Positions 3,739-40,607 of a stretch of DNA of 64,000 nucleotides are shown here, piece by piece. The stretch is from a bacterium. GTDB lineage: Bacteria; Patescibacteriota; Minisyncoccia; Phycocordibacterales; UBA2100. The translations under genes were made by a program, and so were the position numbers. A model generated the notes under the pieces. The model was given only the letters and a program-made list of their open reading frames with translations. It had not been told where the DNA came from and did no database searches. Each line of letters begins with the position of its first letter. Position 1 is the stretch's first letter. The stretch spans positions 103,451-167,450 of the forward strand of contig JAYPJF010000002.1 in NCBI GenBank assembly GCA_038128225.1, given 5' to 3'.

Positions 3739-3767
3739 AGTCGCTGACGCCTGAAGCCACAAAAAAT

Positions 3768-3801
3768 GCCCCGGGCGCTTACGCGCCCGGGGTCTTCGTT
3801 T
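3768..3801 (+). terminator. rho-independent terminator after the high-GC gene
   Basis: GCCCCGGGCGC-TTAC-GCGCCCGGGG hairpin followed by TCTTCGTTT. Confidence 0.6.
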
Positions 3802-3831
3802 ACAATAAAAGTTGTTGTACAGTGGGCGGAC

Positions 3832-3907
3832 GGGCCCGTAGCTCAGCTGGTAGAGCGCTGCATTCGCATTGCAGAGGTCAGGGATTCGATCTCCCTCGGG
3901 TCCACCA
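3832..3907 (+). tRNA. tRNA-Ala (anticodon CGC), CCA encoded
   Basis: Manual cloverleaf: acceptor GGGCCCG/CGGGTCC; D-arm GCTC..GAGC; anticodon stem CTGCA/TGCAG with loop TTCGCAT; T-arm AGGGA-TTCGATC-TCCCT; 3' ACCA. Confidence 0.85.
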
Positions 3908-3909
3908 CT

Positions 3910-4749
3910 ATGATTCTTTTGTTTTATAAATACATCACCATAGTTGACCCTAAGACGCTCGCCGAGAAAGTGCGCGTGTACGCCGAAAAACTAGATCTTT
4001 TGGGGCGCATCATTGTTGCAGAAGAAGGGATAAACGGCACCGTCGAAAGTTCGTCGGAAGCAGCGCAAGAATTTTCGGATTTTCTACACACGCTGCCCGG
4101 ATTAGCCGACATGAATATCAAAACAAGCGAAGGGGAGCGAGCTTTCCGAAAGCTCTCAGTAAAAGTACGAAAAGAGATCGTCGGGACCCATTTCCCACAA
4201 GACATTGACCCGCGCGTGCGCACCGCAGTGCACATTCCTGCGCAAACCCTCCGTGAGTGGTATCGGTCGGGGAAGCAGTTTACGGTGGTTGACATGCGTA
4301 ACAGTTACGAATATGCGTCGGGACATTTCAAAAACTCGATTGATCCGGGGATGGAAGCATCGCGCGACCTCCCGGAAGTCATGCCGAAACTCGCGCCGTA
4401 TAAAAACAAAACGGTGGTGACGGTATGCACTGGTGGTGTCCGGTGCGAAAAAATGTCAGCGTACCTTTTGAAAGAAGGATTTACCGATGTGTACCAACTT
4501 GAAAACGGGATCCATACATACATGCAACAGTTTCCTGGTGAGGACTTTGAGGGAACGCTCTATACGTTTGATACCCGCGTCACGATGGATTTCGGGGGCA
4601 AAAGAAAAGTGGTGGGCGCGTGTACTTTTTGCGGCAAACAGACTGAGCGCTACATCAACTGCGCCCAAGGAGAATGTCGAACACATTTTCTCGCGTGTAC
4701 TGAGTGCGCGCCACACGATCGAGCGATGTTCTGTACTCGTTGTAAATAA
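3910..4749 (+). CDS. trhO: rhodanese-domain tRNA U34 hydroxylase TrhO/YceA family (UPF0176) with C-terminal Cys-rich zinc-ribbon extension
   Basis: N-terminal FYKYITIVDP...LGRIIVAEEGINGTV signature. Rhodanese active-site Cys (VTVCTGGVRCEK). Cys cluster CTFCGK...CAQGEC...CTEC...CTRC. The ATG lies 2 nt after the tRNA CCA, so the exact start is uncertain. Confidence 0.7.
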   Translation: MILLFYKYITIVDPKTLAEKVRVYAEKLDLLGRIIVAEEGINGTVESSSEAAQEFSDFLHTLPGLADMNIKTSEGERAFRKLSVKVRKEIVGTHFPQDIDPRVRTAVHIPAQTLREWYRSGKQFTVVDMRNSYEYASGHFKNSIDPGMEASRDLPEVMPKLAPYKNKTVVTVCTGGVRCEKMSAYLLKEGFTDVYQLENGIHTYMQQFPGEDFEGTLYTFDTRVTMDFGGKRKVVGACTFCGKQTERYINCAQGECRTHFLACTECAPHDRAMFCTRCK

Positions 4750-17706: not shown

Positions 17707-18438
17707 ATGATACACAGTATCGACCTGCGGGTGCCAGAAAGAATTCAGCTTCTGATGGATGCAGAAAATGTTGAAGGCGTTCTGCGTGAAGTGTTGTCCC
17801 CAGGTGACGACGACGCTACATTCCATGACACACTCAGCGAATACCGACTCACCACACATCTTGTTGAATGGCTCGCAGCGCGAATCAATTTCGAACAAGG
17901 GGTTCGCCTCTCTGAAGAAGCGGATCTTTCGCGCGACACCAAAGCGCTGGTGCTTGGACGAATGGCCGCGGTTGCTTCTGCCGCTGAGGCTCAGAAATTT
18001 ATTGCCGGCATAGTGGAGAGTTGTGGGCATGATCTAGGAGATGAGGAATTGTTCCAGATCATGCCGTTTGTCCGAGCGGCTTGTGAGGAACAGGGGCATG
18101 AAGCAGCGCGCGCCGTTATCCGAGGCTTGGTGCACTACATGTACCATAGCGCAGACAGTACTGCGCGTGCAGACCTAAACACCTTACTCGCGCGCGCGTC
18201 GGGCTCTGGAGTCGCTCCCAGTCTGAATTCTGCGCCGCGAGAGCCAGTGATCGTAGTGCTTGTACTGCTCGGCATGCTCGTTTTTGGAATTGGTGCCTCC
18301 GCCGGTTTTATACCGAACCCACTCTCAGAGCCGGGTTTTGCGGAAACTATCGGCTGGGGTTTGCTCGTGGGCGCGTGTGTTGGTGCTGTAGTGGGGCTGG
18401 TTGTCCGCATAGCAACTGTTCTGCGACGCAGGCAGTAA
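17707..18438 (+). CDS. hypothetical protein with two C-terminal TM helices
   Basis: SD AAAGGAGAG before the ATG; C-terminal hydrophobic helices; GC hairpin terminator at 18462-18494. Confidence 0.5.
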   Translation: MIHSIDLRVPERIQLLMDAENVEGVLREVLSPGDDDATFHDTLSEYRLTTHLVEWLAARINFEQGVRLSEEADLSRDTKALVLGRMAAVASAAEAQKFIAGIVESCGHDLGDEELFQIMPFVRAACEEQGHEAARAVIRGLVHYMYHSADSTARADLNTLLARASGSGVAPSLNSAPREPVIVVLVLLGMLVFGIGASAGFIPNPLSEPGFAETIGWGLLVGACVGAVVGLVVRIATVLRRRQ

Positions 18439-18494
18439 AGGACTTAAAGTTTTGCGAGCGCGCGGCGAATGTCGCGCGCTCTTTGTCTAGCTAG

Positions 18495-18522
18495 TTGAAA
18501 CAAATGCAAAGTGTTGTATATT
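18495..18522 (+). promoter_or_regulatory. sigma70-like promoter (TTGAAA-16nt-TATATT)
   Basis: The -35/-10 hexamers with a 16-nt spacer lie 30 nt upstream of the 18552 ATG. Confidence 0.45.
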
Positions 18523-18551
18523 CTTGACGGCAGTCACATAGGGATTGGAAA

Positions 18552-18953
18552 ATGGAAAACATCGGGATCGTGTCGGCAGCATGGGTGTTGGGAATTAACA
18601 TATGCGCCATATTGGTAGTTGTTGCGGGCGCAGAAACCATCATTGATCTATGCAGGGCAGTGTATTACTTGGTGAGATATCCGCATATCGATACCGATAT
18701 TCTTTCGGCTTTGAGCGACTCTGCGTGGTGGACGTTTCCGAAACTTGAGCAGTATGATGCGCGACGTTTCAGTTACGACCTACATGTGCACGTGTCGCGC
18801 CTCAAAGAAGCAGGCCTTATTGAGACGGAGGGCGGCTCTCCAATTGGAAGGGTCGCGCGACGCGGCATGCGCTTCCGCATAACCCCAAAAGGGCAGTGGA
18901 AGTTACAGAATTTCACGAAACAGCATGCGCATGCGTATAGGCGCGCCCGGTAA
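18552..18953 (+). CDS. hypothetical protein, N-terminal TM plus possible winged-helix C-terminus
   Basis: TM helix (IGIVSAAWVLGINICAILVVVAGA) and a basic C-terminal region. A bidirectional hairpin AAAGCCCGCC-GATAA-GGCGGGCTTT follows at 18991-19015. Confidence 0.45.
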   Translation: MENIGIVSAAWVLGINICAILVVVAGAETIIDLCRAVYYLVRYPHIDTDILSALSDSAWWTFPKLEQYDARRFSYDLHVHVSRLKEAGLIETEGGSPIGRVARRGMRFRITPKGQWKLQNFTKQHAHAYRRAR

Positions 18954-19032
18954 CGGGCGCATTTTTTATAGGATTTTCTCAGGCTTCGCAAAAGCCCGCC
19001 GATAAGGCGGGCTTTCTGGTAAAACAGATTTA

Positions 19033-19377
19033 TCAGATAGTGGGGGCCGCATCAGCGAGGGCCTTGTAGTACATCGCGGCGCAGTGAAGTGCTTTGCGAC
19101 CGTCAGGCTCGATCGTGTACATGGCGACCATTTTTTTATTTTTGGATGGCAGGTGACTCTTACTCGAAACGAAACGTCGATTACGCAATCGTCTAAGCGA
19201 AACACCAATTTGCTGAATCGTGATTGTCACGTTGAGTCTTTTGGCGATTGCCTGTGCGATTGCAAAAGAATAGTTTGTAGCGTTCGGTGAGCGGGTTAGC
19301 TCGCACAGAATCAGGTACTGTACCGGTGCCAGCACCATGTGGTGCCTTGGTAACGGAAGGGTTATCTTTGGAGACAT
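19033..19377 (-). CDS. PadR-family transcriptional regulator (winged helix)
   Basis: LILCELTRSPNATNYSFAIAQAIAKR..IQQIGVSLRRL...YTIEPDGRKAL matches the PadR HTH plus wing pattern. SD AGAGGA before the ATG. Confidence 0.55.
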   Translation of the reverse strand: MSPKITLPLPRHHMVLAPVQYLILCELTRSPNATNYSFAIAQAIAKRLNVTITIQQIGVSLRRLRNRRFVSSKSHLPSKNKKMVAMYTIEPDGRKALHCAAMYYKALADAAPTI

Positions 19378-19550
19378 TGCGGCATCCTCTTTTTACATTG
19401 CTTTTATTCATCTATCACGGTGTATACACTGTGTCAAAATGAAACTGCCAGGGCCCGCGCGCCACACCCATCCGTTCTCTTGTGCTTTACATGTTTTTAT
19501 GGTAAAGAAATTTTGGAGCAAAAAGCTCTTGAACATAAAGGAGAAATTCA

Positions 19551-20051
19551 ATGACCTCGGCTTCGAAGAATAAGGATCTCCGTCAAAGGCTCGTGGAGGC
19601 GTTGACCGCTACGACGAAAAAAGCGATCAAGGCAAAGGATGTGCCTGCAACGATGCCGAAAGATGCACGCGCTCTCGGCGAAGCCCCGCCTCATCTTCAG
19701 CACCTCTTTGCGCTGTTGTGGGAGGCGGCCGATCGGATGACTCAGATGGTCACCGCGGCTCAGGAAACTGGAATTGACAAGGCAGGGAAAGAAGCCAAAA
19801 TCGCGTTTGTGCGGAAGGTCGAAGAGATGCAGGATCAGGTACAAGCGCTTCGGGCGCTCTTCTATCAGCTCGTCAGTGAGTATTACGCCCCTGATACCCA
19901 GAAGGGGGGTATTCTTTTTGGTTACGGAGCCACGCTCCAAGGAGGAGTTCTCCATATGTACGCTCACACTGCAAAGAGTGCCGAAGAGGCTGCAATGCGT
20001 GAGGCGCTGTTTGGTAGAGGCGGCATTGGGGTCACTATCCTCAAGATGTGA
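19551..20051 (+). CDS. hypothetical protein (166 aa) upstream of the TasA-like locus
   Basis: SD AAGGAGAAA before the ATG. Followed by the terminator at 20067-20097 (GGGGCGCGCAAC-GAGA-GTTGCGCGCC-TTTTT). Confidence 0.5.
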   Translation: MTSASKNKDLRQRLVEALTATTKKAIKAKDVPATMPKDARALGEAPPHLQHLFALLWEAADRMTQMVTAAQETGIDKAGKEAKIAFVRKVEEMQDQVQALRALFYQLVSEYYAPDTQKGGILFGYGATLQGGVLHMYAHTAKSAEEAAMREALFGRGGIGVTILKM

Positions 20052-20097: not shown

Positions 20098-20322
20098 TCA
20101 CAAGTGACGAAAAATTCGCCGCCGCATTTTTGGGATAAAAAATCTTTATACACATATTGTTCACATCTTCTCCACGCAATTCACAATTGACCGCTTGCAT
20201 TAATGCGCGCGATGATTCTAACGGGACTATTCTTTTGCTGCGCGCGGCGCGTGCGCTACTCCGCGGGCAGCACGGGAAAGTTTTCATTATTAAGTTTACA
20301 AGTTTTTAATTTAACAAATTGC

Positions 20323-21240
20323 ATGAATAGAATTCTTTTGAGTTTGGGTGTGATTGCATTTGTGGGTGCCGCAGCTGCAGGTGCAACGGGCGCGTTCTTC
20401 AACGACACAGAAACGTCGACAGGAAACACGTTTGCTGCAGGAGATATCGATCTTCAGATTGATAGCGTCGCGCACTACAACGGAATGGTGTGTACTTTAG
20501 TTGGAAACACCTACCACTGGATTCCAGAAAGCGATGTGACTTTGGATCAAAATATGCAACCAGTTGCGGATGTGGATATGAACGAGCAGACAGAGTGGGA
20601 CGTATTCAATACTGCGAATCCGACCCAATATCCAGAGGCAGGTACTGCGTGTCAAGGTACGTGGCCGGTAGGCAATCTCGACGAAAACACACTCGGCATG
20701 GACGAGTTTTTCAACTTCTCCGATATTAAGCCAGGTGATAATGGGGAAAACACGGTCTCGGTTCACGTGGGAAGCAACGATGCGTGGATGTGTGTCTCAA
20801 TCGCGAATATTGCGGATGCAGACAACACATGTACTGAGCCTGAGGATAGCGAAGTTGGAGAGCTTTGTACTGTCAGCGTGCCTGAAAACACTGTAAACGG
20901 TGAGCTCGATTCAAATCTCAACTTCTTCGCATGGCGTGACGACGGAGACAACGTGTTTGAAAGCGGTGAAGTTGCACTTGGCGGGCCGGTTGCCGCAAAT
21001 ACATTGCTCGCTCAATCATGGGCGCTCGCGGAGAGCGGTGATACGCCAATCCCTGGAGATTCCACACAATATATCGGTCTTGCATGGTGCGCAGGCACAA
21101 TGAGTGTCGTGGGCAACACAATCTCATGTAATGGGTCAGGTATGAGTAACCTTGCTCAAACTGATTCATGGGGGGCGGATCTGACGTTCTACGTAGAACA
21201 GTCCCGAAACAATCCGAATTTCCTCTGTAATCAAGATTAA
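20323..21240 (+). CDS. TasA/CalY (camelysin, peptidase M73)-like secreted protein with SipW-cognate class signal peptide, paralog 1
   Basis: N-terminus MNRILLSLGVIAFVGAAAAGATGAFFNDTETSTGNTFAAGDIDLQIDS. Conserved blocks FFNFSDIKPGDNGENTVSVH, AWRDDGDNVFESGE, YIGLAWCAGT, NLAQTD...FYVEQSRNNPNFLC. Confidence 0.75.
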   Translation: MNRILLSLGVIAFVGAAAAGATGAFFNDTETSTGNTFAAGDIDLQIDSVAHYNGMVCTLVGNTYHWIPESDVTLDQNMQPVADVDMNEQTEWDVFNTANPTQYPEAGTACQGTWPVGNLDENTLGMDEFFNFSDIKPGDNGENTVSVHVGSNDAWMCVSIANIADADNTCTEPEDSEVGELCTVSVPENTVNGELDSNLNFFAWRDDGDNVFESGEVALGGPVAANTLLAQSWALAESGDTPIPGDSTQYIGLAWCAGTMSVVGNTISCNGSGMSNLAQTDSWGADLTFYVEQSRNNPNFLCNQD

Positions 21241-21347
21241 CTAGTCTCTCTAGCCGTACTACGCTCGATTCGTTCGAGCGTAGCGGGCTGAAGGGATAAG
21301 TCTCACAGCGATTAGCCAGGTTGGATTATTAAACTCAGAAAATCTGC

Positions 21348-22826
21348 ATGAAAAGAATCTTATTAAGCCTTGGAACAATCGTGTTTATTGGCGCAAGCGT
21401 TGTAAGTGCAACAGGCGCATTTTTCAATGACACAGAAACGTCGACAGGAAACACGTTTGCTGCAGGAGACATCGATCTTCGAATCGACAATGAAAGTTAT
21501 GCTACTAACAACGCGGGGGTGCTTGTCGCGAGCCCGAATAATTCGTGGGCGCTTTCAGATCTGACCAGCCAGTTATTTTTCAGTTTTGACGATCTCAAAC
21601 CGGGAGACATCGGGGAGGACACGATCTCGGTACACGCGGGGTCAAATGATGCCTGGGCATGTATGGCAGCAGACATAACCGCAACGCCAGACAATGGCAT
21701 AAACGAACCAGAAGCAGACGCCGGTGACGTAACCGACGGCGCACAAGGTGGTGAACTTCAAAATTATCTCAATTTCGTATTTTGGCGTGACGACGGAGAC
21801 AACGTGTTTGAAAACGACGAAGCGCAAATTACACAATGGGTTGGCCAGGCAGGCACCTTGTTTAACGGCGCGTGGGCACCGATTGCTGATGCGCAAAACG
21901 GCGCTGTTATTTCTGGAGGGACAACACGCTACGTAGGCAAGGCATGGTGCTTCGGCACGCTCGCAGCCGCTGCAGTTGCTCAAGACGGACAAGGCAAAAC
22001 GGGAAACAACGGCCCGCTCGCGCGCGGCACAGGATTTACGTGTTCAGGTGTGGGCAATCAAAACAACGCGCAGACAGACGGCGTCCTCGTTGACGTTTCA
22101 TTCTATGCAACACAGGCTCGCAACAATGGAAGCTTCGTATGTTCCTCATTGGCGCCGTTTGCGGGCAGTAGCACCGTTGTTGAAATTACGGAGAGTGCAC
22201 TCTCAGAATCACCGAGTGACTTGCTCGCAGCTCCTAACTCGTGGCTCTTCTACAATGACACCAACGATACAATCATGACGATTGATCAGTTTGCGCCGAA
22301 TGGCGAAAACCACATGGACACTATTGCGGGTGCCGAGGGTGCAAAGATGCTTCTTGCGGACGCTTCAAGTCGCTACAACATTGCAACGTATAAGTACAAA
22401 GATGTGAAATTGAGCGATATCAACTCGCTTAAGTACCGCATATACGACGGCTCTGCTTCAGCTGAGACACCGTACCTGCACTTCAATGTTGACTTCGTAA
22501 ACAACGACACGTGGCAGCGACGCTTGGTGATGGTGCCAACGGGTGTTGTCGCAAATACATGGACTACTGTTGATGCGATTGCCGGTGGCACAGCACTGTG
22601 GACCTACTCAGGAACTTTCTGGCCCGCAGGTTCAACCAGCAACGGCTCGATTCCTGGCGCAACAGCACGTTCGTGGAATGACATTCTTGCCGATTACCCG
22701 AATGCGGAGACACGCTCGACCGATTCATTCTTCGGTGTTCGCGTTGGTCATCCAGGACCAGCGGGGGAGACCGGGTATGTGGACTGGGTTGAGTTCAACG
22801 GAGAGACAAGTGATTTCGTCCAGTAA
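21348..22826 (+). CDS. TasA/CalY-like secreted protein with SipW-cognate signal, paralog 2 (long C-terminal extension)
   Basis: MKRILLSLGTIVFIGASVVSATGAFFNDTETSTGNTFAAGDIDLRIDN and the same conserved blocks (FFSFDDLKPGDIGEDTISVH, FWRDDGDNVFENDE, YVGKAWCFGT, FYATQARNNGSFVC). Extra C-terminal domain of about 230 aa. Confidence 0.75.
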   Translation: MKRILLSLGTIVFIGASVVSATGAFFNDTETSTGNTFAAGDIDLRIDNESYATNNAGVLVASPNNSWALSDLTSQLFFSFDDLKPGDIGEDTISVHAGSNDAWACMAADITATPDNGINEPEADAGDVTDGAQGGELQNYLNFVFWRDDGDNVFENDEAQITQWVGQAGTLFNGAWAPIADAQNGAVISGGTTRYVGKAWCFGTLAAAAVAQDGQGKTGNNGPLARGTGFTCSGVGNQNNAQTDGVLVDVSFYATQARNNGSFVCSSLAPFAGSSTVVEITESALSESPSDLLAAPNSWLFYNDTNDTIMTIDQFAPNGENHMDTIAGAEGAKMLLADASSRYNIATYKYKDVKLSDINSLKYRIYDGSASAETPYLHFNVDFVNNDTWQRRLVMVPTGVVANTWTTVDAIAGGTALWTYSGTFWPAGSTSNGSIPGATARSWNDILADYPNAETRSTDSFFGVRVGHPGPAGETGYVDWVEFNGETSDFVQ

Positions 22827-22940
22827 TTCGTCTTTAGCCGCACTCGACATTCTGGCAGAGCCAAAGTGTCGAGCGGGCTGAAGGAGAAGGCGTCTTTTCA
22901 GCAAGGTCTTTTAACAAGTTCAGTTTAAGCATTACACAGT

Positions 22941-24404
22941 ATGCGCAGAATATTTCTGAGTGTTTTGACGATCGTGGCAGTCGGCGGTGCAGTAATTGGC
23001 GGAACGGGTGCGTTTTTTAGTGACACGGAAACAGCTACGGGAAATTTGTTTACCGCAGGTGCACTTGATTTGAAAGTTGACAATGATAGCTACTACAACG
23101 GGAATCGTTGTACGTTTCTTGATGCGCAGGCAACAACGTCACCTGGCTTTTACTGGCAGGGAAATGCCGTGTACCCGGTGCCAGGTTCACCTTGTGAGAC
23201 CTCGTTTCCTGAATCAGACCTTGACGACGGACGCCTCTTCTTTAATTTCACCGACATGAAGCCAGATGATGAAGGTGAAGACACAATCTCCTTGCATGTA
23301 CAAAACGACGCCTGGGCGTGTCTCGATGTTTCTCTCACGTCAAACGACGATCGTTCAACGACCGAACCTGAAGGCCAAGTCGATGCTCTTGAAGATATAA
23401 ACAACACATGGGATGGGGAGCTCGCACAAAATCTGCAATTTTATTGGTGGGCAGACGATGGAGACAATGTATACGAAACGGGAGAAAATTCGCTCACTAA
23501 CGGGCAAGTGATGTCTCTTATGGATCTTGCGAGCACCAGCGGCATGTTTTCAGTGCCACTCGCAGATTCAACTCAAAACGCGTGGGGTGTAGGCGGTCCA
23601 CTTCCTGCTAATCAGGTAATGTATATTGGTAAAGCGTGGTGTTTCGGAACGCTCACACTTGATCCGGTTCCTGCAGGGCAGGGCGTGAATCCTACAGTTG
23701 ACCCAGGGGTGAACTGTGACGGAACTGCGCTCACCAACCTCACTCAGACCGATGGCGTGACGCTCGATATGGCTTTCCGCACGGTTCAGGCGCGCAATAA
23801 CCGCAACTTCGTATGTTACGAGGATACAACTCGCGCAACAATCACTGTGGTAAAGCAAATTACGAATGACAATGGCGGCAACAATGTTGTTGCAGACTTC
23901 CAGCTCTTCTTGGACAACGGCGTAGTGACGATTCCAGTTACTTCTGGCGCGGGGAACGTGGTTAGCGGTGGAACCTACACAGTTGCCGAGACCGGCGTTC
24001 AAGGGTATGTCGGATCGTTTATTCAAGGACCTGGCCAAGACTGTGACGCGAATGGCCAAGTGACCATTGCAGCGGGGGAAAGCAAAACATGTGTCCTCAC
24101 AAACAACGATCTTCCTGCAACTATCACGCTTGTGAAAAACGTAACGGGAACACCACCGCTTGCGAGTCCGACGGTGTTCGGTCTGAACATCGACGGCGGC
24201 TTGGTGCCGCACAACACCTCGGTGCAGGTTTCGGCAAACACACCGCATCTAATTAACGAAGCAGGTCGTGCAGGGTACACCTTCTCAGGACCAATCACTG
24301 GTACATCAAACTATGGCCAGTCATGTCCGGCAGTATTAGGAGGCTCTGTAACGCTTGCTGAAGGGGAAGCGATCACGTGTACGATTACCAACAATAAGAA
24401 TTAA
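22941..24404 (+). CDS. TasA/CalY-like secreted protein with SipW-cognate signal, paralog 3, with two C-terminal Ig-like beta-sandwich repeats
   Basis: GGTGAFFSDTETATGNLFTAGALDLKVDN and conserved blocks. C-terminal tandem repeats ITVVKQITNDNGG...TYTVAETGVQGY...TCVLTNNDLPATITLVKNV...TCTITNN. Confidence 0.75.
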   Translation: MRRIFLSVLTIVAVGGAVIGGTGAFFSDTETATGNLFTAGALDLKVDNDSYYNGNRCTFLDAQATTSPGFYWQGNAVYPVPGSPCETSFPESDLDDGRLFFNFTDMKPDDEGEDTISLHVQNDAWACLDVSLTSNDDRSTTEPEGQVDALEDINNTWDGELAQNLQFYWWADDGDNVYETGENSLTNGQVMSLMDLASTSGMFSVPLADSTQNAWGVGGPLPANQVMYIGKAWCFGTLTLDPVPAGQGVNPTVDPGVNCDGTALTNLTQTDGVTLDMAFRTVQARNNRNFVCYEDTTRATITVVKQITNDNGGNNVVADFQLFLDNGVVTIPVTSGAGNVVSGGTYTVAETGVQGYVGSFIQGPGQDCDANGQVTIAAGESKTCVLTNNDLPATITLVKNVTGTPPLASPTVFGLNIDGGLVPHNTSVQVSANTPHLINEAGRAGYTFSGPITGTSNYGQSCPAVLGGSVTLAEGEAITCTITNNKN

Positions 24405-24409
24405 CGCGT

Positions 24410-25303
24410 ATGGTTACGCGGGTAGCAGCTCGGGCAACAATCGCAACGGTCGTTGCGGTTGTTGCAATAGCTGCATACACCGCGCGTGGTGTTGAGCCGG
24501 GGATTACGTTTGCAACACAAGGTATCGACCTCAAAATTGACAGCAAAGCGTGGTACAACGGCGCACTCGTTCCTTCGGCGACGTGGGCTTTGAAGAATCT
24601 TGTTCCTGGGTCTGACAAGTTTTTCAATCTCACCGATATAAAACCCGGGGATACCGGTTGCAATGTGATCTCGATGCACATTCAGAAAAAAGATGCATGG
24701 ATGTGTTTGGACTTCAAAAACTTGCAGCAAAGCGAGAATGGCGTGAACGAACCGGAATCGAGCGCAGACACCACAAGTGGAGCGGGTGACCTTGCGGACG
24801 GGCTCGAGTTTTTTGGCTGGGAAGACGATGGAGATGGGAAGTTTGAGCCACCGCGCGAGCAGACTCTTTTTGGCACAACAACACAAGCAGCGTCGTACGT
24901 GTTTAATAACAAAACATATGTCATCGGTGATTCACGGCGTGGCAATATATGCCGGAAAGATACAGTGCGCTTTGTCGGCATGTGTTGGTGCGCGGGGAAT
25001 CTCAGTGTGAATTGGATTGCCGGAAAAACGAGCTGTGATGCAACTGCGCTAGGCAACGAAGCACAAACAGACACGATGAGTGTTGATGTGGAGATTCGTG
25101 CCGAACCCGCACAAGACAAGCCTAAGTTTGTATGCGGCACAACACCGCCAGGAAACGGTGGCACTAACCCACCTGCTGTGCCACCTGCACCTTCGCCAAC
25201 CACGACACCACCAACTACGAATAAGCTTCAAGATCTCATAACCGACCTACTCAACCGCACTGGTTCGATTCGTGATCGCATCCCCGTGATCCCACGACCA
25301 TAG
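24410..25303 (+). CDS. TasA/CalY-like paralog 4 with divergent N-terminal signal and Pro/Thr-rich C-terminus
   Basis: Shares FFNLTDIKPGDTGCNVISMH, FFGWEDDGDGKFE, FVGMCWCAGN, NEAQTD...KPKFVC. The N-terminus lacks the FFxDTE motif. 5-nt gap after paralog 3 and a 1-nt gap before the peptidase gene. Confidence 0.65.
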   Translation: MVTRVAARATIATVVAVVAIAAYTARGVEPGITFATQGIDLKIDSKAWYNGALVPSATWALKNLVPGSDKFFNLTDIKPGDTGCNVISMHIQKKDAWMCLDFKNLQQSENGVNEPESSADTTSGAGDLADGLEFFGWEDDGDGKFEPPREQTLFGTTTQAASYVFNNKTYVIGDSRRGNICRKDTVRFVGMCWCAGNLSVNWIAGKTSCDATALGNEAQTDTMSVDVEIRAEPAQDKPKFVCGTTPPGNGGTNPPAVPPAPSPTTTPPTTNKLQDLITDLLNRTGSIRDRIPVIPRP

Positions 25304-25304
25304 T

Positions 25305-27500
25305 ATGAAATTCTTTGGCAACATCCTGTACGGCGCATTCATCCTCGTTTTTCTCGGGGTAACCGGCCTTTTTCTTGCGACTTTGTTGCCCATTCCCAAC
25401 AATATAGAAATAAAAATCGTGAAGTCAGGCTCGATGGAACCGACGATTCTCACGGGTTCGATTGTGGTGATCAAGCCGCAGGATGTGTATCAAATCGGTG
25501 ACGTCGTGACCTTTGGTGCGGACACAAAGGCCGAGATTCCCACGACGCACCGTATCATCGCGATGCGCACTGATGTCAGCACAACGTGGTTTTCAACAAA
25601 AGGCGATGCGAACGAAGAAGCGGATCCGCAGATGATCCGCGCTGACCAAATCATCGGCAAAGTGCTTGCCGTGGTCCCGTACGCTGGGTACATGCTCGAT
25701 TTTGCCCGTCAACCAATCGGGTTTACGTTCATGATTGGCATTCCGGCCGGGCTCTTAATTCTTGATGAATTCATCAACATTTATAAAGAATTGCGCCGTT
25801 CGCGGCGCAGACGCGATGATGACGAGAGAACGGGAACAAAAGTGGATGAGGTAACGTACATGCGCCCACGTGCAATGGACGACGTATTTGTGCCTATATA
25901 TACGCCTATGGCGCACACAACACCCGCGGCGCACTCGGAATCACGGGCAGGCAAGCGCTTAGTGACTGCGTTCGCTATGTATTTCATTTTTGTGCTTACC
26001 ATTTCTGATACCGCAGGAGCAACGATTTCATACTTCGCAGACACCAACGTATCACATGACAATACACTTATCGCGCGATCCCTCGATTTCACCGTGGATG
26101 CGGGTGAGACGATGGTAGCGTCGATAGGGGAAGGCGACGAGGTGTACGTCACCACGACATTTACTCCTGAAGCAGGGAGTTTGCCGACAGCGTATCGGGT
26201 TGTTGCTGAAAAAACAGGCGGCGTGGAACCGCTGTGCTCGCTCTTGTATGCTGACGCGACTTCTACTCCCACATACACGGGACCGCTCATTGATCTTGTG
26301 ACTGGCACGACCACTGAGGAAATAACCGACTGGCAAGTGCGCGTAACGCTGCCGGACGCAACAGGGGTTGTCGAGAATGATTCGTGCGCTTTCGATCTGG
26401 TGTATCAGGGATGGTATCTCCTTAATGGGCAATGGGGATACACTGACGAGGAACGCGTAAACCTTGAATTTGCCTATACACCGGGAGGCGAAATAATTAT
26501 CGATCCTCCAGGGTTGCCACCAGATGTTGTACTGAATGAATTTTTGCCCAACCCTGATGTGAGCGCGAATGGGCTCAATCTTGGAAGTGATTCCAGCGAC
26601 ATGCCGCTTGGAGAATGGGTTGAGCTCTACAATAACGAGGACACCCCTGTTGATGTCGCCAACTGGTACATAGCGGATGGCGCTGGCGGCATAGGAAATC
26701 AGCAGGCAGTTATTTCGTCATTGAATACTGCTCCGGCAACCACCGTCATTCCAGCGCACGGCTGGCTTGTAGTCTATTTTAACGCTTCAACACTGAACAA
26801 CACGGGCGACTCCATTTATTTGTATACTGATGAGGATTTTCTCATTGATTTTTACTCGTACGGAACTCCAAGTGAGTATTGTGAAAATGAACCGACACCA
26901 GCTGACGCGAATGTTGATACAAGTGCGCCCGGTGTTTGTAGTGGTGCGACAGTCGCACCGAATAAGTCATATGCACGCATCCCTGATGGTATAGGGTCAT
27001 TCATAGATCCGATTCCAACACCTGGAGGAGCGAACATGCCTGACCTTGTCATTGAAGTGGCGGCAGGCAGTGAATCGCAGGAGCCGGTTTTGCCGGAAGC
27101 TGAAGAAACTGATGTGGTGGTAGGCTCTGAACCCGCTGCAGTTTCTTCAGAAGGGGCCTTAAATTCACACGGAGGCGGCTCAAATTCAGACGCACCTTCT
27201 GAACGTGAGGAAATGGGCGCTGGGGAAGCGGACTCGGAAGTGACCGAAAGTGATGACGAAAGTATCTCCGAGGAAAATCCTACCGCAGAGGCGGAGGAGC
27301 CGGAAACACAATCAGTAGAAGCACAACCTGCAGACCAAAACAGTGCACAAGAGCCACCGGGGTCCGTGACGCAGACAGAACCGTCTTCTGCGCCAGAGAG
27401 TGGGCCGGCACCTACAGAACTTCCGCCCGCAATTGAGCCCTCTGCACCCGAGACTCCGCCACCTGCTCAAGCAGTCGATTCCGCACCACCGGCAGAATAG
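25305..27500 (+). CDS. SipW-type (archaeal/eukaryal-type, S26B) signal peptidase I fused to a SipW-substrate-like segment, a lamin-tail domain (LTD) and an acidic Pro/Glu/Ser-rich tail
   Basis: N-terminal TM then KSGSMEPTILTGSIVVIKP...IPTTHRIIAM (catalytic Ser/His boxes of SipW-like peptidases). Internal TM plus DTAGATISYFADTNVSHDNTLIARSLDF resembling the cognate signal. LTD-like VVLNEFLPNPD...EWVELYNNEDTPVDVANWYIAD...GDSIYLYTDEDFLIDFYSYG. Low-complexity tail from about aa 590. Confidence 0.75.
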   Translation: MKFFGNILYGAFILVFLGVTGLFLATLLPIPNNIEIKIVKSGSMEPTILTGSIVVIKPQDVYQIGDVVTFGADTKAEIPTTHRIIAMRTDVSTTWFSTKGDANEEADPQMIRADQIIGKVLAVVPYAGYMLDFARQPIGFTFMIGIPAGLLILDEFINIYKELRRSRRRRDDDERTGTKVDEVTYMRPRAMDDVFVPIYTPMAHTTPAAHSESRAGKRLVTAFAMYFIFVLTISDTAGATISYFADTNVSHDNTLIARSLDFTVDAGETMVASIGEGDEVYVTTTFTPEAGSLPTAYRVVAEKTGGVEPLCSLLYADATSTPTYTGPLIDLVTGTTTEEITDWQVRVTLPDATGVVENDSCAFDLVYQGWYLLNGQWGYTDEERVNLEFAYTPGGEIIIDPPGLPPDVVLNEFLPNPDVSANGLNLGSDSSDMPLGEWVELYNNEDTPVDVANWYIADGAGGIGNQQAVISSLNTAPATTVIPAHGWLVVYFNASTLNNTGDSIYLYTDEDFLIDFYSYGTPSEYCENEPTPADANVDTSAPGVCSGATVAPNKSYARIPDGIGSFIDPIPTPGGANMPDLVIEVAAGSESQEPVLPEAEETDVVVGSEPAAVSSEGALNSHGGGSNSDAPSEREEMGAGEADSEVTESDDESISEENPTAEAEEPETQSVEAQPADQNSAQEPPGSVTQTEPSSAPESGPAPTELPPAIEPSAPETPPPAQAVDSAPPAE

Positions 27501-35709: not shown

Positions 35710-38700
35710 CTACAAATTGCTAGGTGGAAGCGTACCAGATGGAGACTGATTTGCAAGTGCGAGCTTCCCTGGCCAACGATAGTAGAGTATAGGGACAAAC
35801 AAAAGCGTAAGCACTGTAGCAAACAAGAGACCAAACATAATCGCGTAAGCGAGAGGACCCCACAATGCGGAACTACCGGCAAGGGGAATCATTCCCACAA
35901 CGGTTGTGATGGTGGTAAGAAGAATGGCACGTAGACGAGAGGCGGCTGCTTCAATAACAACCTCGCGATGTGAAAGTTCGATGCGCTGCGTCTCGAAACG
36001 CTTCATTGAATCAAGTAAGATGATCGCGTGGTTAATAATGACACCTGCAAGTGCGATGATGCCAAGAAGTGATGAGAAACTTAGTGGCTGTTGCATTAAG
36101 AAGAGCCCGAACATGACGCCGATGAGGGAAAGCGGTACCACGGAGAGTAAGTACAGCGTATGGCGGATTGAATTAAATTCCAGGACAAGAATCGCAAACA
36201 TCAAGACAAGTCCACCGATGAACGCAAAAAACATTTCGCGGAACGAACGGTCAACTTCTTCCGTTTCGCCACCGACGATCATATGTACGCCTTCAGGAAT
36301 CTCGACTGTCTCGATTTTTTCTTCAAACGCCTGTGTGATTGCAACAGGGGTTGTGCCGGGTTTCGTGTACGCAGCCACTGATTCAATACGGAGTCTGTCT
36401 TCATGGGTAATAGAAGTGTTGCCGGGTTCGAGTGTCACATCAAGCACCGAACCAAGTAATATTGGCCCTGCGGGCGTTTCAATAGCGATCTGGCGAATCG
36501 CATCAGCGGTGACGTGATTTGTTTCGCTTGGGTCGCGGAAATTTGGATTCAAATCCAATTTCACCAGCACATCAATATCTGTACCACCTGCTTTGATTGT
36601 GGTTGCGATGGCGCCGTTTACTGCAGTGCGTAGCGTTTGAGCAATAAGGAGAGGGCTAAGTCCGTTGGCCGCCGCTTTTGCTCGGTCCACGGAGAAAGCG
36701 AACTGTGTTGTGTTATTGCGTGTGCTCGTGGTTATTTCCGTTGCGCCCGGAATCTCAGCGAGGAGATCTTCAGCTTTCGAAACTGCAGTGGCAAGCTCGG
36801 TGAGGTCTTCACCAGCGAATTTGATCAATACAGGTGCACCGGTAGGCGGCCCGTTATTCGGCTCGTACACGCGCACATCTGCGCTCGAAACTTGTGCGAT
36901 CGCGTCTCGCAAATCTTCAACAGCCTCAGTGCTTGTCACTGAGCGATCCTCACGCAGAAGAATAGTAATGTTTGCAAATCGCGCTCCCGATCCTGCGTTT
37001 TGATTGAAACTGGAGCCAGACCCGGTGGTAGAAACAAATGACTCAATGTATGGCTTGTCGTATAGAAGCTCCTCAACTTCGCGAGTCGACAAGTCAGTTG
37101 CCTGGAGTGAAGTTCCTGCAGGTTTTTCGATCTCAATGTAAATAAAGTTCAAATCTTCTTGAGGGAAGAAAATACTGTGCACCGCACCGGTTGCGGGAAG
37201 CGCGATGGACGCAACAAACAAAACCAGAATGCCAATGAGGAAACGGTTTTCTTTTGTGCGGTTTCCCAGAATGCCGTCAAGGAAAGATCGATACCATTGC
37301 TGCGCACGTGCATTATACGCATCTTGAATTTCCTCAAGGCGGGAGCGCTCGGTCCGCACTGCCATGACTGTAATAAGAGGCACAAGACCCAGCGCAACAA
37401 AAATTGATGCCATCAGCACGAAAATGATCGTGAAGGGGATGCTTGCGATAAATTCACCTACGATCCCGGAAATAAAAAAGAGTGGCACGAACACCGCCAC
37501 GGTCGTGAGCGTCCCCGCAATGAGTGGCCACGCATACTCTTCAAGTGACGCGCGCGCAGCCTCTTCTTTGGTTTTATACTTGTGAATACGCGTGTGAATA
37601 GCCTCCACAACGACAATCCCGGAATCGACAAGAATGCCGATTGCGAGAATCAAAGAAAAGAGAGAAACGAAGTTAATACTGTTTCCGGATACATACAGTC
37701 CGATGAAGGCGATAAGGAACGATAGAGGAATGGAGAGCCCGGCAACAATAGCCTCGCGCCATCCAAGCGTCACGAACAAAACCAGCATAACCAAAAGCAT
37801 CGTGACTGCGCCGGTTTCAGTTAATTCAAACAGGTCACGCTTAATTTCATCCGCTTGGTCGAGCACGGTGGCAATTTCTCCAGTGATTACGCCTGTGCGT
37901 TGCATCTCTTCAAGTTTTTCTGTGGCATCCTGTGCAACTGAAAGAATGTTTGCCTGTGCCGTTTTGAAAACATTGATTGTAAGTGCGGGTTGTGAAGGAG
38001 TACCGTCAACGCTAAGTCGGGAGTATGACCGCGCTGCTTCGACACCGTCGGAGACCAAAGCCACGTCTCGAACGTAGAGCGGGATGCCGCTTCCGGTATT
38101 GATGGGGATATTTTGTACCTCAGAAGCAACATCGACATCGCTTTTAAGTGCAAGCGTATACTCGATGTTATTAACAATGATGTTGCCAACCGGGAGGGAA
38201 ACGTTTGCGCTCTGGATAGCAGTCGCAACGTCTATAAGACGCACGTTGTACTGGTCGAGTTTTTCGCGATTCACTACCACCTGAACCTCTCGATTGCGAA
38301 CTCCGCTTACTTCGACACGCCCGACACCTCCGACACTCTCGAGCTCGTCGATGATAGTTTCAGACAGCTCGAATAGTTCCGAGGGCAGAAAGTCTCCGGA
38401 TACTGATGCGATCAACACTGGTTGGTCGGCAAAGTTTACCTCGCTTACAACCGGGTCCTCAGCTTCCTCAGGGAGCCGTGGCTTTATTGTGTCCACCTCG
38501 TCCTTGAGTTCTTGTATCGATTTGTCGAGATCGGCGCTTGCGTTGAATTCAACAGTAACGATTGAGACGCCTTCGCTTGAACGAGAGGTGAGCTTATTAA
38601 GATTGGGGAGATTGTAGACACCATCCTCAATTTCATTGGTGATGAGCTGCTCCACGTCTTCGGCTGAAGCACCAGGAAGTACCACGGAGACGATGCCAAC

Positions 38701-38832
38701 CGGAACCTTAACTTCGGGGGAAGATTCTTTAGGAATTGCCACGAGTGACGCAATTCCTACGCCAAGAAGAGCGACAAGCAACAACAGAGTAAACTGTCTT
38801 TTCCTAAGGAAAAATGTCCACAACGGAAGCAT
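35710..38832 (-). CDS. RND efflux transporter, AcrB/HAE1-like permease (1040 aa)
   Basis: 12-TM architecture with two large periplasmic loops; typical AcrB-family blocks (e.g. GIVVVEAIH, LVDDAIVVVE-like). Confidence 0.85.
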   Translation of the reverse strand: MLPLWTFFLRKRQFTLLLLVALLGVGIASLVAIPKESSPEVKVPVGIVSVVLPGASAEDVEQLITNEIEDGVYNLPNLNKLTSRSSEGVSIVTVEFNASADLDKSIQELKDEVDTIKPRLPEEAEDPVVSEVNFADQPVLIASVSGDFLPSELFELSETIIDELESVGGVGRVEVSGVRNREVQVVVNREKLDQYNVRLIDVATAIQSANVSLPVGNIIVNNIEYTLALKSDVDVASEVQNIPINTGSGIPLYVRDVALVSDGVEAARSYSRLSVDGTPSQPALTINVFKTAQANILSVAQDATEKLEEMQRTGVITGEIATVLDQADEIKRDLFELTETGAVTMLLVMLVLFVTLGWREAIVAGLSIPLSFLIAFIGLYVSGNSINFVSLFSLILAIGILVDSGIVVVEAIHTRIHKYKTKEEAARASLEEYAWPLIAGTLTTVAVFVPLFFISGIVGEFIASIPFTIIFVLMASIFVALGLVPLITVMAVRTERSRLEEIQDAYNARAQQWYRSFLDGILGNRTKENRFLIGILVLFVASIALPATGAVHSIFFPQEDLNFIYIEIEKPAGTSLQATDLSTREVEELLYDKPYIESFVSTTGSGSSFNQNAGSGARFANITILLREDRSVTSTEAVEDLRDAIAQVSSADVRVYEPNNGPPTGAPVLIKFAGEDLTELATAVSKAEDLLAEIPGATEITTSTRNNTTQFAFSVDRAKAAANGLSPLLIAQTLRTAVNGAIATTIKAGGTDIDVLVKLDLNPNFRDPSETNHVTADAIRQIAIETPAGPILLGSVLDVTLEPGNTSITHEDRLRIESVAAYTKPGTTPVAITQAFEEKIETVEIPEGVHMIVGGETEEVDRSFREMFFAFIGGLVLMFAILVLEFNSIRHTLYLLSVVPLSLIGVMFGLFLMQQPLSFSSLLGIIALAGVIINHAIILLDSMKRFETQRIELSHREVVIEAAASRLRAILLTTITTVVGMIPLAGSSALWGPLAYAIMFGLLFATVLTLLFVPILYYRWPGKLALANQSPSGTLPPSNL

Positions 38833-38835
38833 GGT

Positions 38836-40485
38836 TTATTGAACAGCCACTTCTTGCCCCTCTTTGAGTCCGCGTACGTCTAAGACAATCCGCGTGTCGT
38901 CGGAAACGCCAGTGACTTCGACCTTGTCACCAAGGAGCGTTCCAATCTCAATCGGGTGTGCGACAAGCGTGGATTCGGGAGAAACGCTAAAAACAATAGC
39001 GCGGTTCGCTTCGATTTTGATAGCCTCAACTGGAATTGCGATAGCACGTGCAGCATTAGTGCGTGTTGTCTGCACGCGAGGAATTTCGATACGCACTGAT
39101 TCGCCATTGGTGAGCGTCGTTTGATCAGCGACTGCAATGCGCACTTCGATTTTCTTTGTCGTGGGGTCAATCGCACTTGCTATTTTAGTAATCGTGCCGG
39201 TTGTTTGTTCGATGCGGACTTCGGTGCCTTCGGCGATTGTGTTTCGATCATCTTCTGAAACGTATGTAAGTATTTCAAGCGCGTTGTTGTTCGAAACCAC
39301 TGCAACGGACTGGAGTGGCGAAACATAGTCACCGCGACTAATCGAAAGACTGTTAAGAGTTCCTCCGATAGGAGCGCGCACGATTGTCTTTTCAAGGGCC
39401 GAAAGCGCCGCGCTGTATGCGCCTTGAGCTTGTTTGAGCGCTGCTTGTGCGGTCGCGATTTCTTCCGAACGGCCTGTGGTGTCCTGATTTACCTGGCGCT
39501 CAGCGACCGCGCTCTGTGTTGCCTTACTATTCAGGTCTTGTGCCGCGCCTGACAATGTGCCGAGCGCTGTTGCAAGTGTTGATCGCGCGGCACTTGCGAG
39601 AGAAATGTAGCCATTAATTTCCTCTTGGGTCACGTTTTGTGTCGCGATCCCTTTATTGAGTGCACTTGATAGCAAATCAACAAAAGTTCGAATCGCGCGC
39701 GTTTCTTCTTGCGCCAATTCAAGTTCAGCAAAAAGATCACTTGTTGCCGTGACACGGTCTCGGCGCGCTGCTTGCGCATCAAGGATTTGTTCAATAACGA
39801 TCCGCTGTTGTTCTACTTGGTTTTTCAGTGCGCTATCCGATGTTTGTACGTTCAGACGAGGCACGCTTGAACGCGGGTTTGAAAACATGGTGTCAAGTTT
39901 TGAGTATATGACGTCATCGTTTGTGTTGTAGGCAGTGGCAATCGTATTGACCGTTGCGCTGCGCGCTTCTGAAAGCGCTGTTGCGGCACTTTGTGCGGAT
40001 ACTTTAGTAATATCCTGCGATTCTGTGCGTGAACCGTTTTCGAGGCGAGCGAGCGCTGCTTTTGCACTGTCGAGAACACCCTCTGCCTGTGTGACCGCTG
40101 CACGTTGGGCGCTGTTCTCGATTTCCGCAATGATGCGCCCCGCCCCCACCGTGTCTCCGAGCTGGTAGTACACGTTGGTGACTCGGCCACTTGTCTCTGT
40201 GCGGAGCTCCGCCTCGCTTTTTGACTCCACTTTGCCGACGACAGGTAGTGGTGTCGTGTTCGCAACAATGTCAGCGATGGAAAGCACGGAAACTGTTCGC
40301 GCACGAGGTTCTTCTTCTACGACCGCAGTTTCTTCGCCGGACAAGAAAAAAAGGCCGACAATTGCCAGTACGAGAAGCATCGCACTAACTTGGTAGGTGC
40401 GCGGTGAGCGTGTTGTTGCATAGACCCACATCGAACCAATGCGGCTGCGCATTTGTGACACTGAAAGTAAATTGAAATACTGCAT
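38836..40485 (-). CDS. RND efflux membrane fusion protein (HlyD/AcrA-like periplasmic adaptor) with extended coiled coil
   Basis: N-terminal TM, a long alpha-helical hairpin, and C-terminal beta-barrel/lipoyl-like segments. Immediately upstream of the permease. The start among M27/M39 is uncertain. Confidence 0.7.
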   Translation of the reverse strand: MQYFNLLSVSQMRSRIGSMWVYATTRSPRTYQVSAMLLVLAIVGLFFLSGEETAVVEEEPRARTVSVLSIADIVANTTPLPVVGKVESKSEAELRTETSGRVTNVYYQLGDTVGAGRIIAEIENSAQRAAVTQAEGVLDSAKAALARLENGSRTESQDITKVSAQSAATALSEARSATVNTIATAYNTNDDVIYSKLDTMFSNPRSSVPRLNVQTSDSALKNQVEQQRIVIEQILDAQAARRDRVTATSDLFAELELAQEETRAIRTFVDLLSSALNKGIATQNVTQEEINGYISLASAARSTLATALGTLSGAAQDLNSKATQSAVAERQVNQDTTGRSEEIATAQAALKQAQGAYSAALSALEKTIVRAPIGGTLNSLSISRGDYVSPLQSVAVVSNNNALEILTYVSEDDRNTIAEGTEVRIEQTTGTITKIASAIDPTTKKIEVRIAVADQTTLTNGESVRIEIPRVQTTRTNAARAIAIPVEAIKIEANRAIVFSVSPESTLVAHPIEIGTLLGDKVEVTGVSDDTRIVLDVRGLKEGQEVAVQ

Positions 40486-40607
40486 GGCAAAAGCGTAATT
40501 ATTTATTGCGACACTACAATTTACCATGTCAAATACCACATTGTCAATTTGTGCATTACCCACAGAGTGGCGCGCGGTGACTATCCTGTGTCTGGTATAC
40601 TCGGCGT

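Follow-up and report, generated by a model that had tools for sequence, protein, structure and literature searches.

A SipW-type signal peptidase, its cognate paralogs and a fused substrate-like module: a candidate cassette for a TasA-superfamily fibre in Patescibacteria

Can five consecutive genes of a bacterium of the Patescibacteriota constitute a self-contained cassette for an extracellular fibre? The question is raised by positions 20323-27500 of a 64,000-nucleotide stretch of contig JAYPJF010000002.1 (assembly GCA_038128225.1, positions 103,451 to 167,450), hereafter the window, where a preliminary description had noticed four paralogous secreted proteins followed by a SipW-like signal peptidase and had likened the arrangement to the tapA-sipW-tasA operon of Bacillus biofilm fibres. 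On balance, we lean towards the answer that the locus is such a cassette for a fibre of the TasA superfamily, in a bacterium of the Parcubacteria/Paceibacteria type, and that its products would assemble into a polar donor-strand fibre in which each subunit can be given a proposed role. The evidence for the cassette and its parts is solid and that for fibre formation is moderate; the roles of the individual subunits are speculative.

The locus consists of five co-directional open reading frames (ORFs) on the forward strand, namely paralog 1 (20323-21240, 305 amino acids), paralog 2 (21348-22826, 492 amino acids), paralog 3 (22941-24404, 487 amino acids), paralog 4 (24410-25303, 297 amino acids) and a peptidase fusion gene (25305-27500, 731 amino acids), which are separated in this order by gaps of 107, 114, 5 and 1 nucleotides. 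These are the five frames first described, and a public collection carries identical gene calls for all five products, on an NCBI contig of 345,348 bp. The ORF list extends paralog 1 upstream to an ATG at 20203, but the 305-residue form, which is also that of the public collection, is the one that aligns with homologs. Promoter and terminator scans remained at background (10 promoters found against 7.3 expected, 14 terminators against 8.9), so that an operon structure is read from gene spacing only.

Is this arrangement peculiar to one genome? More than 1,454 homologs of paralog 1 and more than 261 of the peptidase were retrieved, and nearly all of those whose source is named stem from Patescibacteria-type metagenome-assembled genomes (MAGs), among them Paceibacterota and Nomura-, Kaiser-, Zambryski- and Taylorbacteria. 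The impression of an organism like those of the candidate phyla radiation (CPR), gained earlier from the letters of the DNA, is supported, its nearest relatives being Patescibacteria/CPR MAGs throughout. The locus also recurs, as a scan of species-representative genomes confirmed at least 546 examples. Eighty of these, almost all from Patescibacteria-type MAGs, were retained, and their ORFs were called and then classified by BLASTP. In 73 of the 80 loci the peptidase is preceded, on its own strand, by one to four paralogs, and in 67 a paralog is found no more than 400 nucleotides upstream of it (median gap, 73 nucleotides). The substrate-like module that is fused to the peptidase in the window, referred to below as the c-module, is a separate downstream ORF, often overlapping, in 54 of the 80 loci and is fused in 12. 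The genes that flank the cassette in the window, including a downstream ATP synthase operon, were considered as further parts and rejected, as they are not conserved with it in the related loci; the unit is therefore taken to comprise the paralogs, the peptidase and the module, in this order.

Some variation in gene content was observed at the edges of the cassette. In one related locus (L066) the peptidase is present once more ~5 kb further downstream, and the module there has 1,440 residues; in two others (L037 and L079) the peptidase is followed by a paralog-like gene. Directly 5' of the cassette in the window, at 17707-20051, four ORFs of 243, 133, 114 and 166 residues are matched neither by Pfam nor by any homolog from the 80 loci; by this comparison they are lineage-specific genes.

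The four proteins encoded upstream of the peptidase are true paralogs. Their alignment contains 46 invariant columns, with 36-50% identity to paralog 1, and the common core blocks noted in the preliminary description are recovered in it as F(F)..D.KP.D.G, W.DDGD...E, WC.G and QTD....D, together with four invariant cysteines. Paralog 1, with 44 Asp and Glu residues against 4 Lys and Arg, is the simplest of them: a signal peptide (residues 1-24), a donor-strand-like segment FFNDTETSTGNTFAAGDIDL (residues 25-44) and a beta-sandwich core without C-terminal add-on. Paralogs 2 and 3 share this N-terminus and core, and differ in what follows. The C-terminus of paralog 2 is a domain of about 200 residues and of unknown family, which matches nothing in Pfam or NCBIfam and recurs in 6 of the 80 loci, while paralog 3 ends in two SpaA-type prealbumin-like domains of the Gram-positive pilin/adhesin type (residues ~298-486; PF19403 SpaA_2, E 4.6e-11; SpaA_4, E 1.3e-3), whose counterpart is present in 25 of the 80. 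A core-only profile, from which the N-terminus had been removed, gathered 1,706 clusters at 50% identity among 1.84 billion representatives. Across the family the core domain nearly always starts at residue ~45-50, while total lengths range from 209 to 992 residues. The family is thus well delimited: its members have the N-terminal module in common and vary in what is added at the C-terminus.

The invariant W.DDGD...E block (20938-20964 in paralog 1, with equivalents in paralogs 2-4) occurs in these strongly acidic proteins along with an invariant EPE and the QTD....D block. By analogy with the sites that drive cannula assembly, it could be a calcium site.

We were interested in how far the SipW-cognate signal extends over the locus. 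The model TIGR04088 (cognate_SipW, cutoff 19 bits) is passed by paralogs 1, 2 and 3 with 25.4, 19.8 and 23.2 bits, and gives no match in paralog 4 or in the internal module of the 731-residue protein. A more sensitive view is offered by a 50-position hidden Markov model (HMM) of the family N-terminus, which was built from 39 homologs from outside the window and searched against the 648 six-frame ORFs of the window. It ranked paralog 2 (E 1e-29), paralog 1 (E 2e-29) and paralog 3 (E 1e-25) at the top, followed by an internal segment of the 731-residue protein (E 1e-4) and paralog 4 (E 0.17), and no other ORF scored below E 0.8. These scores place the motif far beyond chance and confine it, within the window, to this locus. 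The almost invariant SipW-cognate N-terminus that had been attributed to all four paralogs is thus retained for the first three and withdrawn for the fourth, and sequence comparison adds a further copy on the C-terminal module of the last gene. Cleavage of paralogs 1-3 is predicted after TGA, at A24|F25, and conservation within the paralog family is highest over the ~20 residues behind this site. In the AlphaFold2 (AF2) monomer model of paralog 1, residues 19-37 are unstructured.

The family consensus N-terminus is Sec-like (MKKILLS). The start of paralog 3 (22941-22965), MRRIFLS, resembles the twin-arginine translocation (Tat) motif RRxFL and gives a weak match to a Tat model (TIGR02811, E 0.046); in paralogs 1 and 2 and in the consensus of the family, NR, KR or KK takes the place of this RR, and archaeal relatives switch between Tat and Sec. 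At the DNA level, the donor-strand regions of paralogs 1 and 2 (20395-20455 and 21420-21480) are near-identical over ~56 nucleotides including synonymous positions (GACACAGAAACGTCGACAGGAAACACGTTTGCTGCAGGAGA.ATCGATCT), whereas that of paralog 3 differs from both at many third positions. The near-identity between paralogs 1 and 2 suggests gene conversion or recent duplication.

Which part of these proteins, then, is related to TasA? The match to PF12389 (Peptidase_M73) in the window paralogs is limited to profile positions ~8-50 of 196 (21.8, 19.9 and 22.8 bits, cutoff 22.5), and in ten Pfam-labelled homologs to positions 3-52. The TasA model NF046066 reaches 15.7 bits against a cutoff of 450, and searches of the PDB sequences with the paralog profile found nothing. 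The core blocks that had been called camelysin-like are thus real, but the camelysin profile covers N-terminal positions only, and the annotation 'TasA family' in Patescibacteria is, as far as these profiles reach, carried by the N-terminal ~45 residues alone, that is, by signal and donor strand. When a 43-sequence family profile was aligned with B. subtilis TasA by hhalign (the TasA sequence used was checked to be identical to 8AUR over residues 28-261), 45 columns at the N-terminus were matched with an E-value of 6e-5. The alignment puts the TasA cleavage site A27|A28, which is experimentally known, opposite A24|F25, and TasA residues 28-47 opposite FFNDTETSTGNTFAAGDIDL. In TasA, residues 28-38 form the donor strand, and residues 28-47 the donor strand with its linker (PMC9674648).

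For the core, structure comparison gave moderate scores. The AF2 single-chain model of paralog 1 has a pLDDT (predicted local distance difference test) of 81 and a pTM (predicted template modelling score) of 0.75, and in a Foldseek search the TasA fibre (8AUR) was the only match below 1e-3, with TM-scores that are low at 0.29-0.37. The best structural matches of the paralog core are four subunits of donor-strand filaments that assemble without a chaperone and are placed in the TasA superfamily, to which archaeal bundling pili (AbpA, 7UEG), Sulfolobus threads (7PNB) and Pyrodictium cannulae (CanX) belong.

Paralog 4 departs from the other three at precisely the segment discussed above. It begins with an N-terminal membrane helix followed by YTARGVEPGITFATQGIDLKID, retains the core and has a Pro/Thr-rich tail at its C-terminus; the cleavage and donor-strand segment TGAFFxDTETST is absent, and its sequence reads ...AIAAYTARGVEPGITFATQGIDLKID where the other paralogs read ...GATGAFFNDTETSTGNTFAAGDIDLQID. 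Only positions 32-50 of the family N-terminal HMM, the distal TFA..IDL.ID part, can be aligned with it, and its N-terminus gives no useful Pfam or NCBIfam match. All 19 orthologs of paralog 4, taken as its best-match proteins, are encoded directly ahead of the peptidase and at no other place, and the motif is absent from 18 of them. Their alignment displays a conserved membrane helix, a conserved Arg and then PG.TFAT...DLKIDS; it has no conserved AxA site, and ~12 residues that the other paralogs possess are lacking. This gap corresponds exactly to TasA 28-38, the residues deleted in the donor-strand mutant of B. subtilis. In terms of sequence, therefore, paralog 4 has lost the strand selectively. 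We speculate that it is an uncleaved, membrane-anchored terminal subunit, able to accept a strand and unable to donate one.

A reading without polymerisation has to be weighed here, in which the paralogs are secreted or surface adhesins or binding proteins, their shared signal is removed by the dedicated peptidase, and the conserved segment is an extended recognition site for that enzyme. The core that is not TasA-like by sequence, the moderate fold scores and the wide span of lengths would all suit such proteins, as would the variable, adhesin-like C-terminal domains, which are SpaA-like in the window and of the VWA type in two homologs (P0041 and P0043). Nevertheless, the closest folds are specifically subunits of donor-strand filaments, and the conserved segment matches the TasA donor strand residue by residue. 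If assembly played no part, it would be hard to account for a paralog that has lost exactly this segment and always stands at one place in the gene order. Moreover, the same segment sits on a non-homologous protein, the c-module, which mirrors the relation of TapA to TasA. We therefore regard non-polymerising adhesins as unlikely, although they are the alternative that we take most seriously.

The c-module is a putative fifth substrate, which had been overlooked in the preliminary description. The 731-residue protein is not a plain peptidase: behind the catalytic domain follow, all on the forward strand, an internal signal with a donor-strand motif, then a beta domain and a lamin-tail domain (LTD), and finally an acidic tail. 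A basic linker (25782-25958, residues ~160-218, RRSRRRRDDDE...), presumably cytoplasmic in view of its charge and flanking helices, leads to an internal signal-anchor helix (residues 219-238) and a second cognate motif, GATISYFADTNVSHDNTLIARSLDF (residues 238-262), together encoded at 25959-26102. Cleavage of the module is predicted at S242|Y243, and T240, Y243 and D246 do not vary among 26 homologs. Hydropathy and charge suggest an arrangement of three helices that would put the internal motif and the catalytic domain on the same, outer side of the membrane. The following beta-sandwich domain (26103-26504, residues ~267-400) is confidently modelled and has no sequence homology to the paralog core. 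The LTD (26520-26864, residues 406-520) is recognised by PF00932 with an E-value of 1.4e-13 (51.6 bits, cutoff 34.3), and the acidic, Pro/Ser/Glu-rich tail of low complexity (26982-27497, residues ~560-731) comprises ~170 residues; it is variable and poorly aligned among homologs, and residues 560-565, the only part of it that was modelled, have low model confidence. A Pfam/NCBIfam scan of the isolated internal module returned only an insignificant match to PF12389 (E 0.14). In profile-profile comparison, the module family and the paralog family align over 43 columns of signal and strand and nowhere else (probability 95%, E 2.7e-8). Accordingly, the module shares with TapA the feature of a donor-strand-like N-terminus on a different fold, as far as can be judged from its sequence. 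Stand-alone homologs of the module were also identified (P0150-P0153, P0171 and P0177).

The linker preceding the internal helix contains a motif of its own, R...MDD(I/V)..P (consensus RxxxMDDIxxP; residues ~176-198, 25830-25900), in which P197 is nearly invariant in fused and stand-alone homologs alike. A conserved cytoplasmic segment of ~50 residues in front of an internal signal helix is odd for a signal peptide.

These parts can be combined into a scheme of assembly. The peptidase would cut paralogs 1-3 at A24|F25 and expose an N-terminal strand, FFxDTETSTGNTFAAG, which would insert into the beta-sandwich of the next subunit and so drive polymerisation. Paralogs 1-3 would form the shaft, decorated by their C-terminal domains (none, the unknown ~200-residue domain and two SpaA-type domains, respectively). 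Cleavage at S242|Y243 would release the fused module on the outer face of the membrane, where it may act as a TapA-like initiator that provides the first strand and so comes to lie at the distal tip, its LTD and acidic tail being exposed there as a candidate adhesin; this position is proposed because its donor strand sits on a fold other than that of TasA, as in TapA. Paralog 4 would stay in the membrane and accept the last free strand, thereby terminating and anchoring the fibre, a role suggested by the retention of the acceptor core and membrane helix along with the absence of the cleavage motif and donor strand. The polarity follows the model for TasA, according to which a subunit extends its own strand only once its own groove has been filled and TapA supplies the first strand.

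Several points weigh against this scheme and should be set beside it. The fibre family is known here from sequences and single-chain models, so that the insertion of strands, the polarity of the fibre and the parts played by paralog 4 and the c-module are proposals. The core domain, as detailed above, is not recognisably that of TasA or camelysin by sequence. A fold search with the fused module returned only generic Ig-like beta-sandwiches, which are undiagnostic, and TapA was absent from the top hits; a TapA-like fold of the module is neither shown nor excluded by these matches. A gene of the paralog 4 type is missing from many related loci, and not every cassette would therefore possess such an anchor; moreover, paralog 4 itself could still be processed by a housekeeping peptidase whose gene lies in another part of the genome.

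The same fibre might also be built with the roles changed: the fused module would then remain unreleased and serve as a membrane-bound nucleator and anchor, and the part of a cap, adaptor or chaperone-like subunit would fall to paralog 4. The fusion does tie the module physically to a membrane protein, TapA of B. subtilis has been described as both anchor and nucleator, and the long conserved cytoplasmic segment in front of the internal helix is unusual for a mere signal peptide. On the other hand, the module is a separate gene in most of the related loci (the 54 mentioned above), it carries a full cognate cleavage motif with the three invariant residues T240, Y243 and D246, and in all solved systems of this type the N-terminus of the donor strand has to be free. 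Such an exchange of roles thus appears improbable to us, and we keep to the released module as initiator and paralog 4 as base.

The proposed scheme depends on the peptidase, whose domain (25305-25814, residues 1-170) is of the S26B, that is SipW/Sec11/archaeal, type. Hydropathy places its two transmembrane helices at residues ~7-31 and ~138-158, and the catalytic residues are Ser43 (SGS*MEP), His82 (TTH*R), and Asp101 and Asp107 (KGD*ANEEAD*), all four of which are invariant in 20 homologs. The Ser/His dyad of S26 enzymes, on which the earlier assignment of the 25305-27500 product had been made to hinge, is hence present, the partner of the Ser being His and not Lys. Residues 6-157 pass the archaeal/eukaryote-type signal peptidase I model TIGR02228 with 101.5 bits (cutoff 51.85), while the SipW equivalog NF046067 gives 100.4 bits, below its cutoff of 190; by these models the enzyme is SipW-like and not a SipW ortholog. 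Its best match among PDB sequences is human SEC11A, with the SGSMEP, HR and KGDNN motifs aligned. What had been described as a SipW-like S26B peptidase starting 1 nucleotide after paralog 4 therefore stands as to its class and place, but the product is a fusion of 731 residues rather than a plain SipW.

Could this enzyme simply be the general type I signal peptidase of the organism, its adjacency to abundant secreted proteins being incidental? CPR genomes are reduced, and no other S26 motif was found within the 64-kb window, an inspection that covered only this part of the genome. A general function would leave unexplained the close paralog adjacency kept in 67 of the 80 loci and the fusion to a cognate substrate in several lineages, and the enzyme is of the SipW/archaeal and not of the LepB type (TIGR02227, 24.3 bits, cutoff 47), so that we give this idea very little credit in comparison with a dedicated processing enzyme. 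That the paralogs are camelysin-type (M73) metalloproteases or precursors of ribosomally synthesized and post-translationally modified peptides, as the Pfam name Peptidase_M73 and the JGI label 'predicted ribosomally synthesized peptide with SipW-like signal peptide' on homologs might imply, is rejected as next to impossible, given that an HExxH motif occurs in none of the five proteins, that the Pfam match is confined to the signal region, and that the paralogs are modelled as folded beta-sandwich proteins of 300-500 residues instead of peptide precursors.

How does the cassette compare with characterised systems? The parallel to tapA-sipW-tasA drawn in the preliminary description holds and is strengthened by the TapA-like fifth substrate. 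As in B. subtilis, the SipW-type S26B peptidase is a dedicated one whose gene lies beside those of its substrates, and an accessory protein of a different fold bears a donor-strand-like N-terminus. The N-termini of the substrates align with that of TasA across cleavage site and donor strand, and the TasA fibre is the best structural match of the core. The differences are equally clear. The core, at ~260 residues against the 196 positions of PF12389, has no detectable sequence similarity to TasA or this profile, and contains four invariant cysteines and the conserved acidic W.DDGD...E block in proteins that are acidic overall. Instead of one shaft-type subunit there are three paralogs with different C-terminal domains, next to an extra paralog without a donor strand. 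The gene order here is substrates, peptidase and accessory protein, and the accessory protein is fused to the peptidase and equipped with an LTD.

The closest multi-subunit precedent is found in the Tat-fimbriae of haloarchaea (tafi; tafA-tafG), for which tip/initiator, adaptor, shaft and anchor paralogs have been proposed; related clusters occur in Thermococcus and Archaeoglobus (PMC11821415, PMC12337348). Both systems would have several paralogous donor-strand subunits, and both have a dedicated peptidase with an extra C-terminal domain and extra membrane helices. The haloarchaeal enzyme, TafD (S24/S26), is a two-domain S26-type peptidase whose deletion blocks pilin processing (PMC11821415). 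The haloarchaeal pilins use Tat signals, however, in contrast to the Sec-like consensus of the present family; a Pfam scan of the locus proteins gave no match to TafG/DUF5305; and the C-terminal extension of the peptidase is here a substrate-like module that is predicted to be cleavable, unlike that of TafD. Sortases and LPXTG signals, for their part, are not evident within the 64-kb window.

It had been suggested earlier that systems of this kind are uncharacterised in such organisms. Literature searches for SipW, TasA, camelysin, PF12389 and TIGR04088 in CPR/Patescibacteria indeed yielded no study of such a system there, and no account of how the locus is organised, of a paralog without the strand or of a peptidase fused to its substrate. 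That Patescibacteria possess TasA homologs is not new: PF12389 homologs in Patescibacteria were remarked upon in the AnnoTree survey of Wang et al. 2022 (PMC9245690), and annotation pipelines of NCBI and JGI label homologs 'TasA family protein', 'SipW-dependent-type signal peptide-containing protein', 'signal peptidase I' and 'type I signal peptidase SipW'.

To the best of our knowledge, little has been learnt about the attachment of ultrasmall CPR/Patescibacteria cells to hosts or surfaces beyond type IV pili. If the cassette builds fibres, these would be among the commonest surface structures of this group. They would offer a compact model of polar assembly without chaperone or usher, in which initiator, shaft and terminator are set by the presence or absence of one strand of 12 residues, and the peptidase-substrate fusion would be an unusual coupling of processing to nucleation. 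A much bolder proposal, which we put forward as a doubtful one, is that the cassette specifies an undescribed, phylum-wide surface organelle of Parcubacteria-type cells, namely a polar donor-strand fibre by which these episymbionts would hold on to hosts or surfaces, with an LTD-bearing tip initiator and adhesin that cleaves itself from, or is translationally coupled to, its peptidase and with an acceptor-only base in the membrane.

Three further observations were made elsewhere in the window. At 45588-48425 on the forward strand, a leucyl-tRNA synthetase of 945 residues contains a NUDIX domain (PF00293, E 3.3e-11) at residues 401-511, just after the editing domain, which is an unusual insertion. 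On the reverse strand, at 35710-40563, an AcrB-type resistance-nodulation-division (RND) transporter of 1040 residues (PF00873, E 2.9e-185) adjoins an HlyD-type membrane-fusion protein of 575 residues; the relatives of this genome are presumed to be single-membraned. Finally, a tRNA gene at 3832-3904 (Rfam, 64.9 bits) lies within the 5' part of a listed forward-strand ORF of 327 residues (3766-4749), so that the true start of this frame must lie downstream of 3904.

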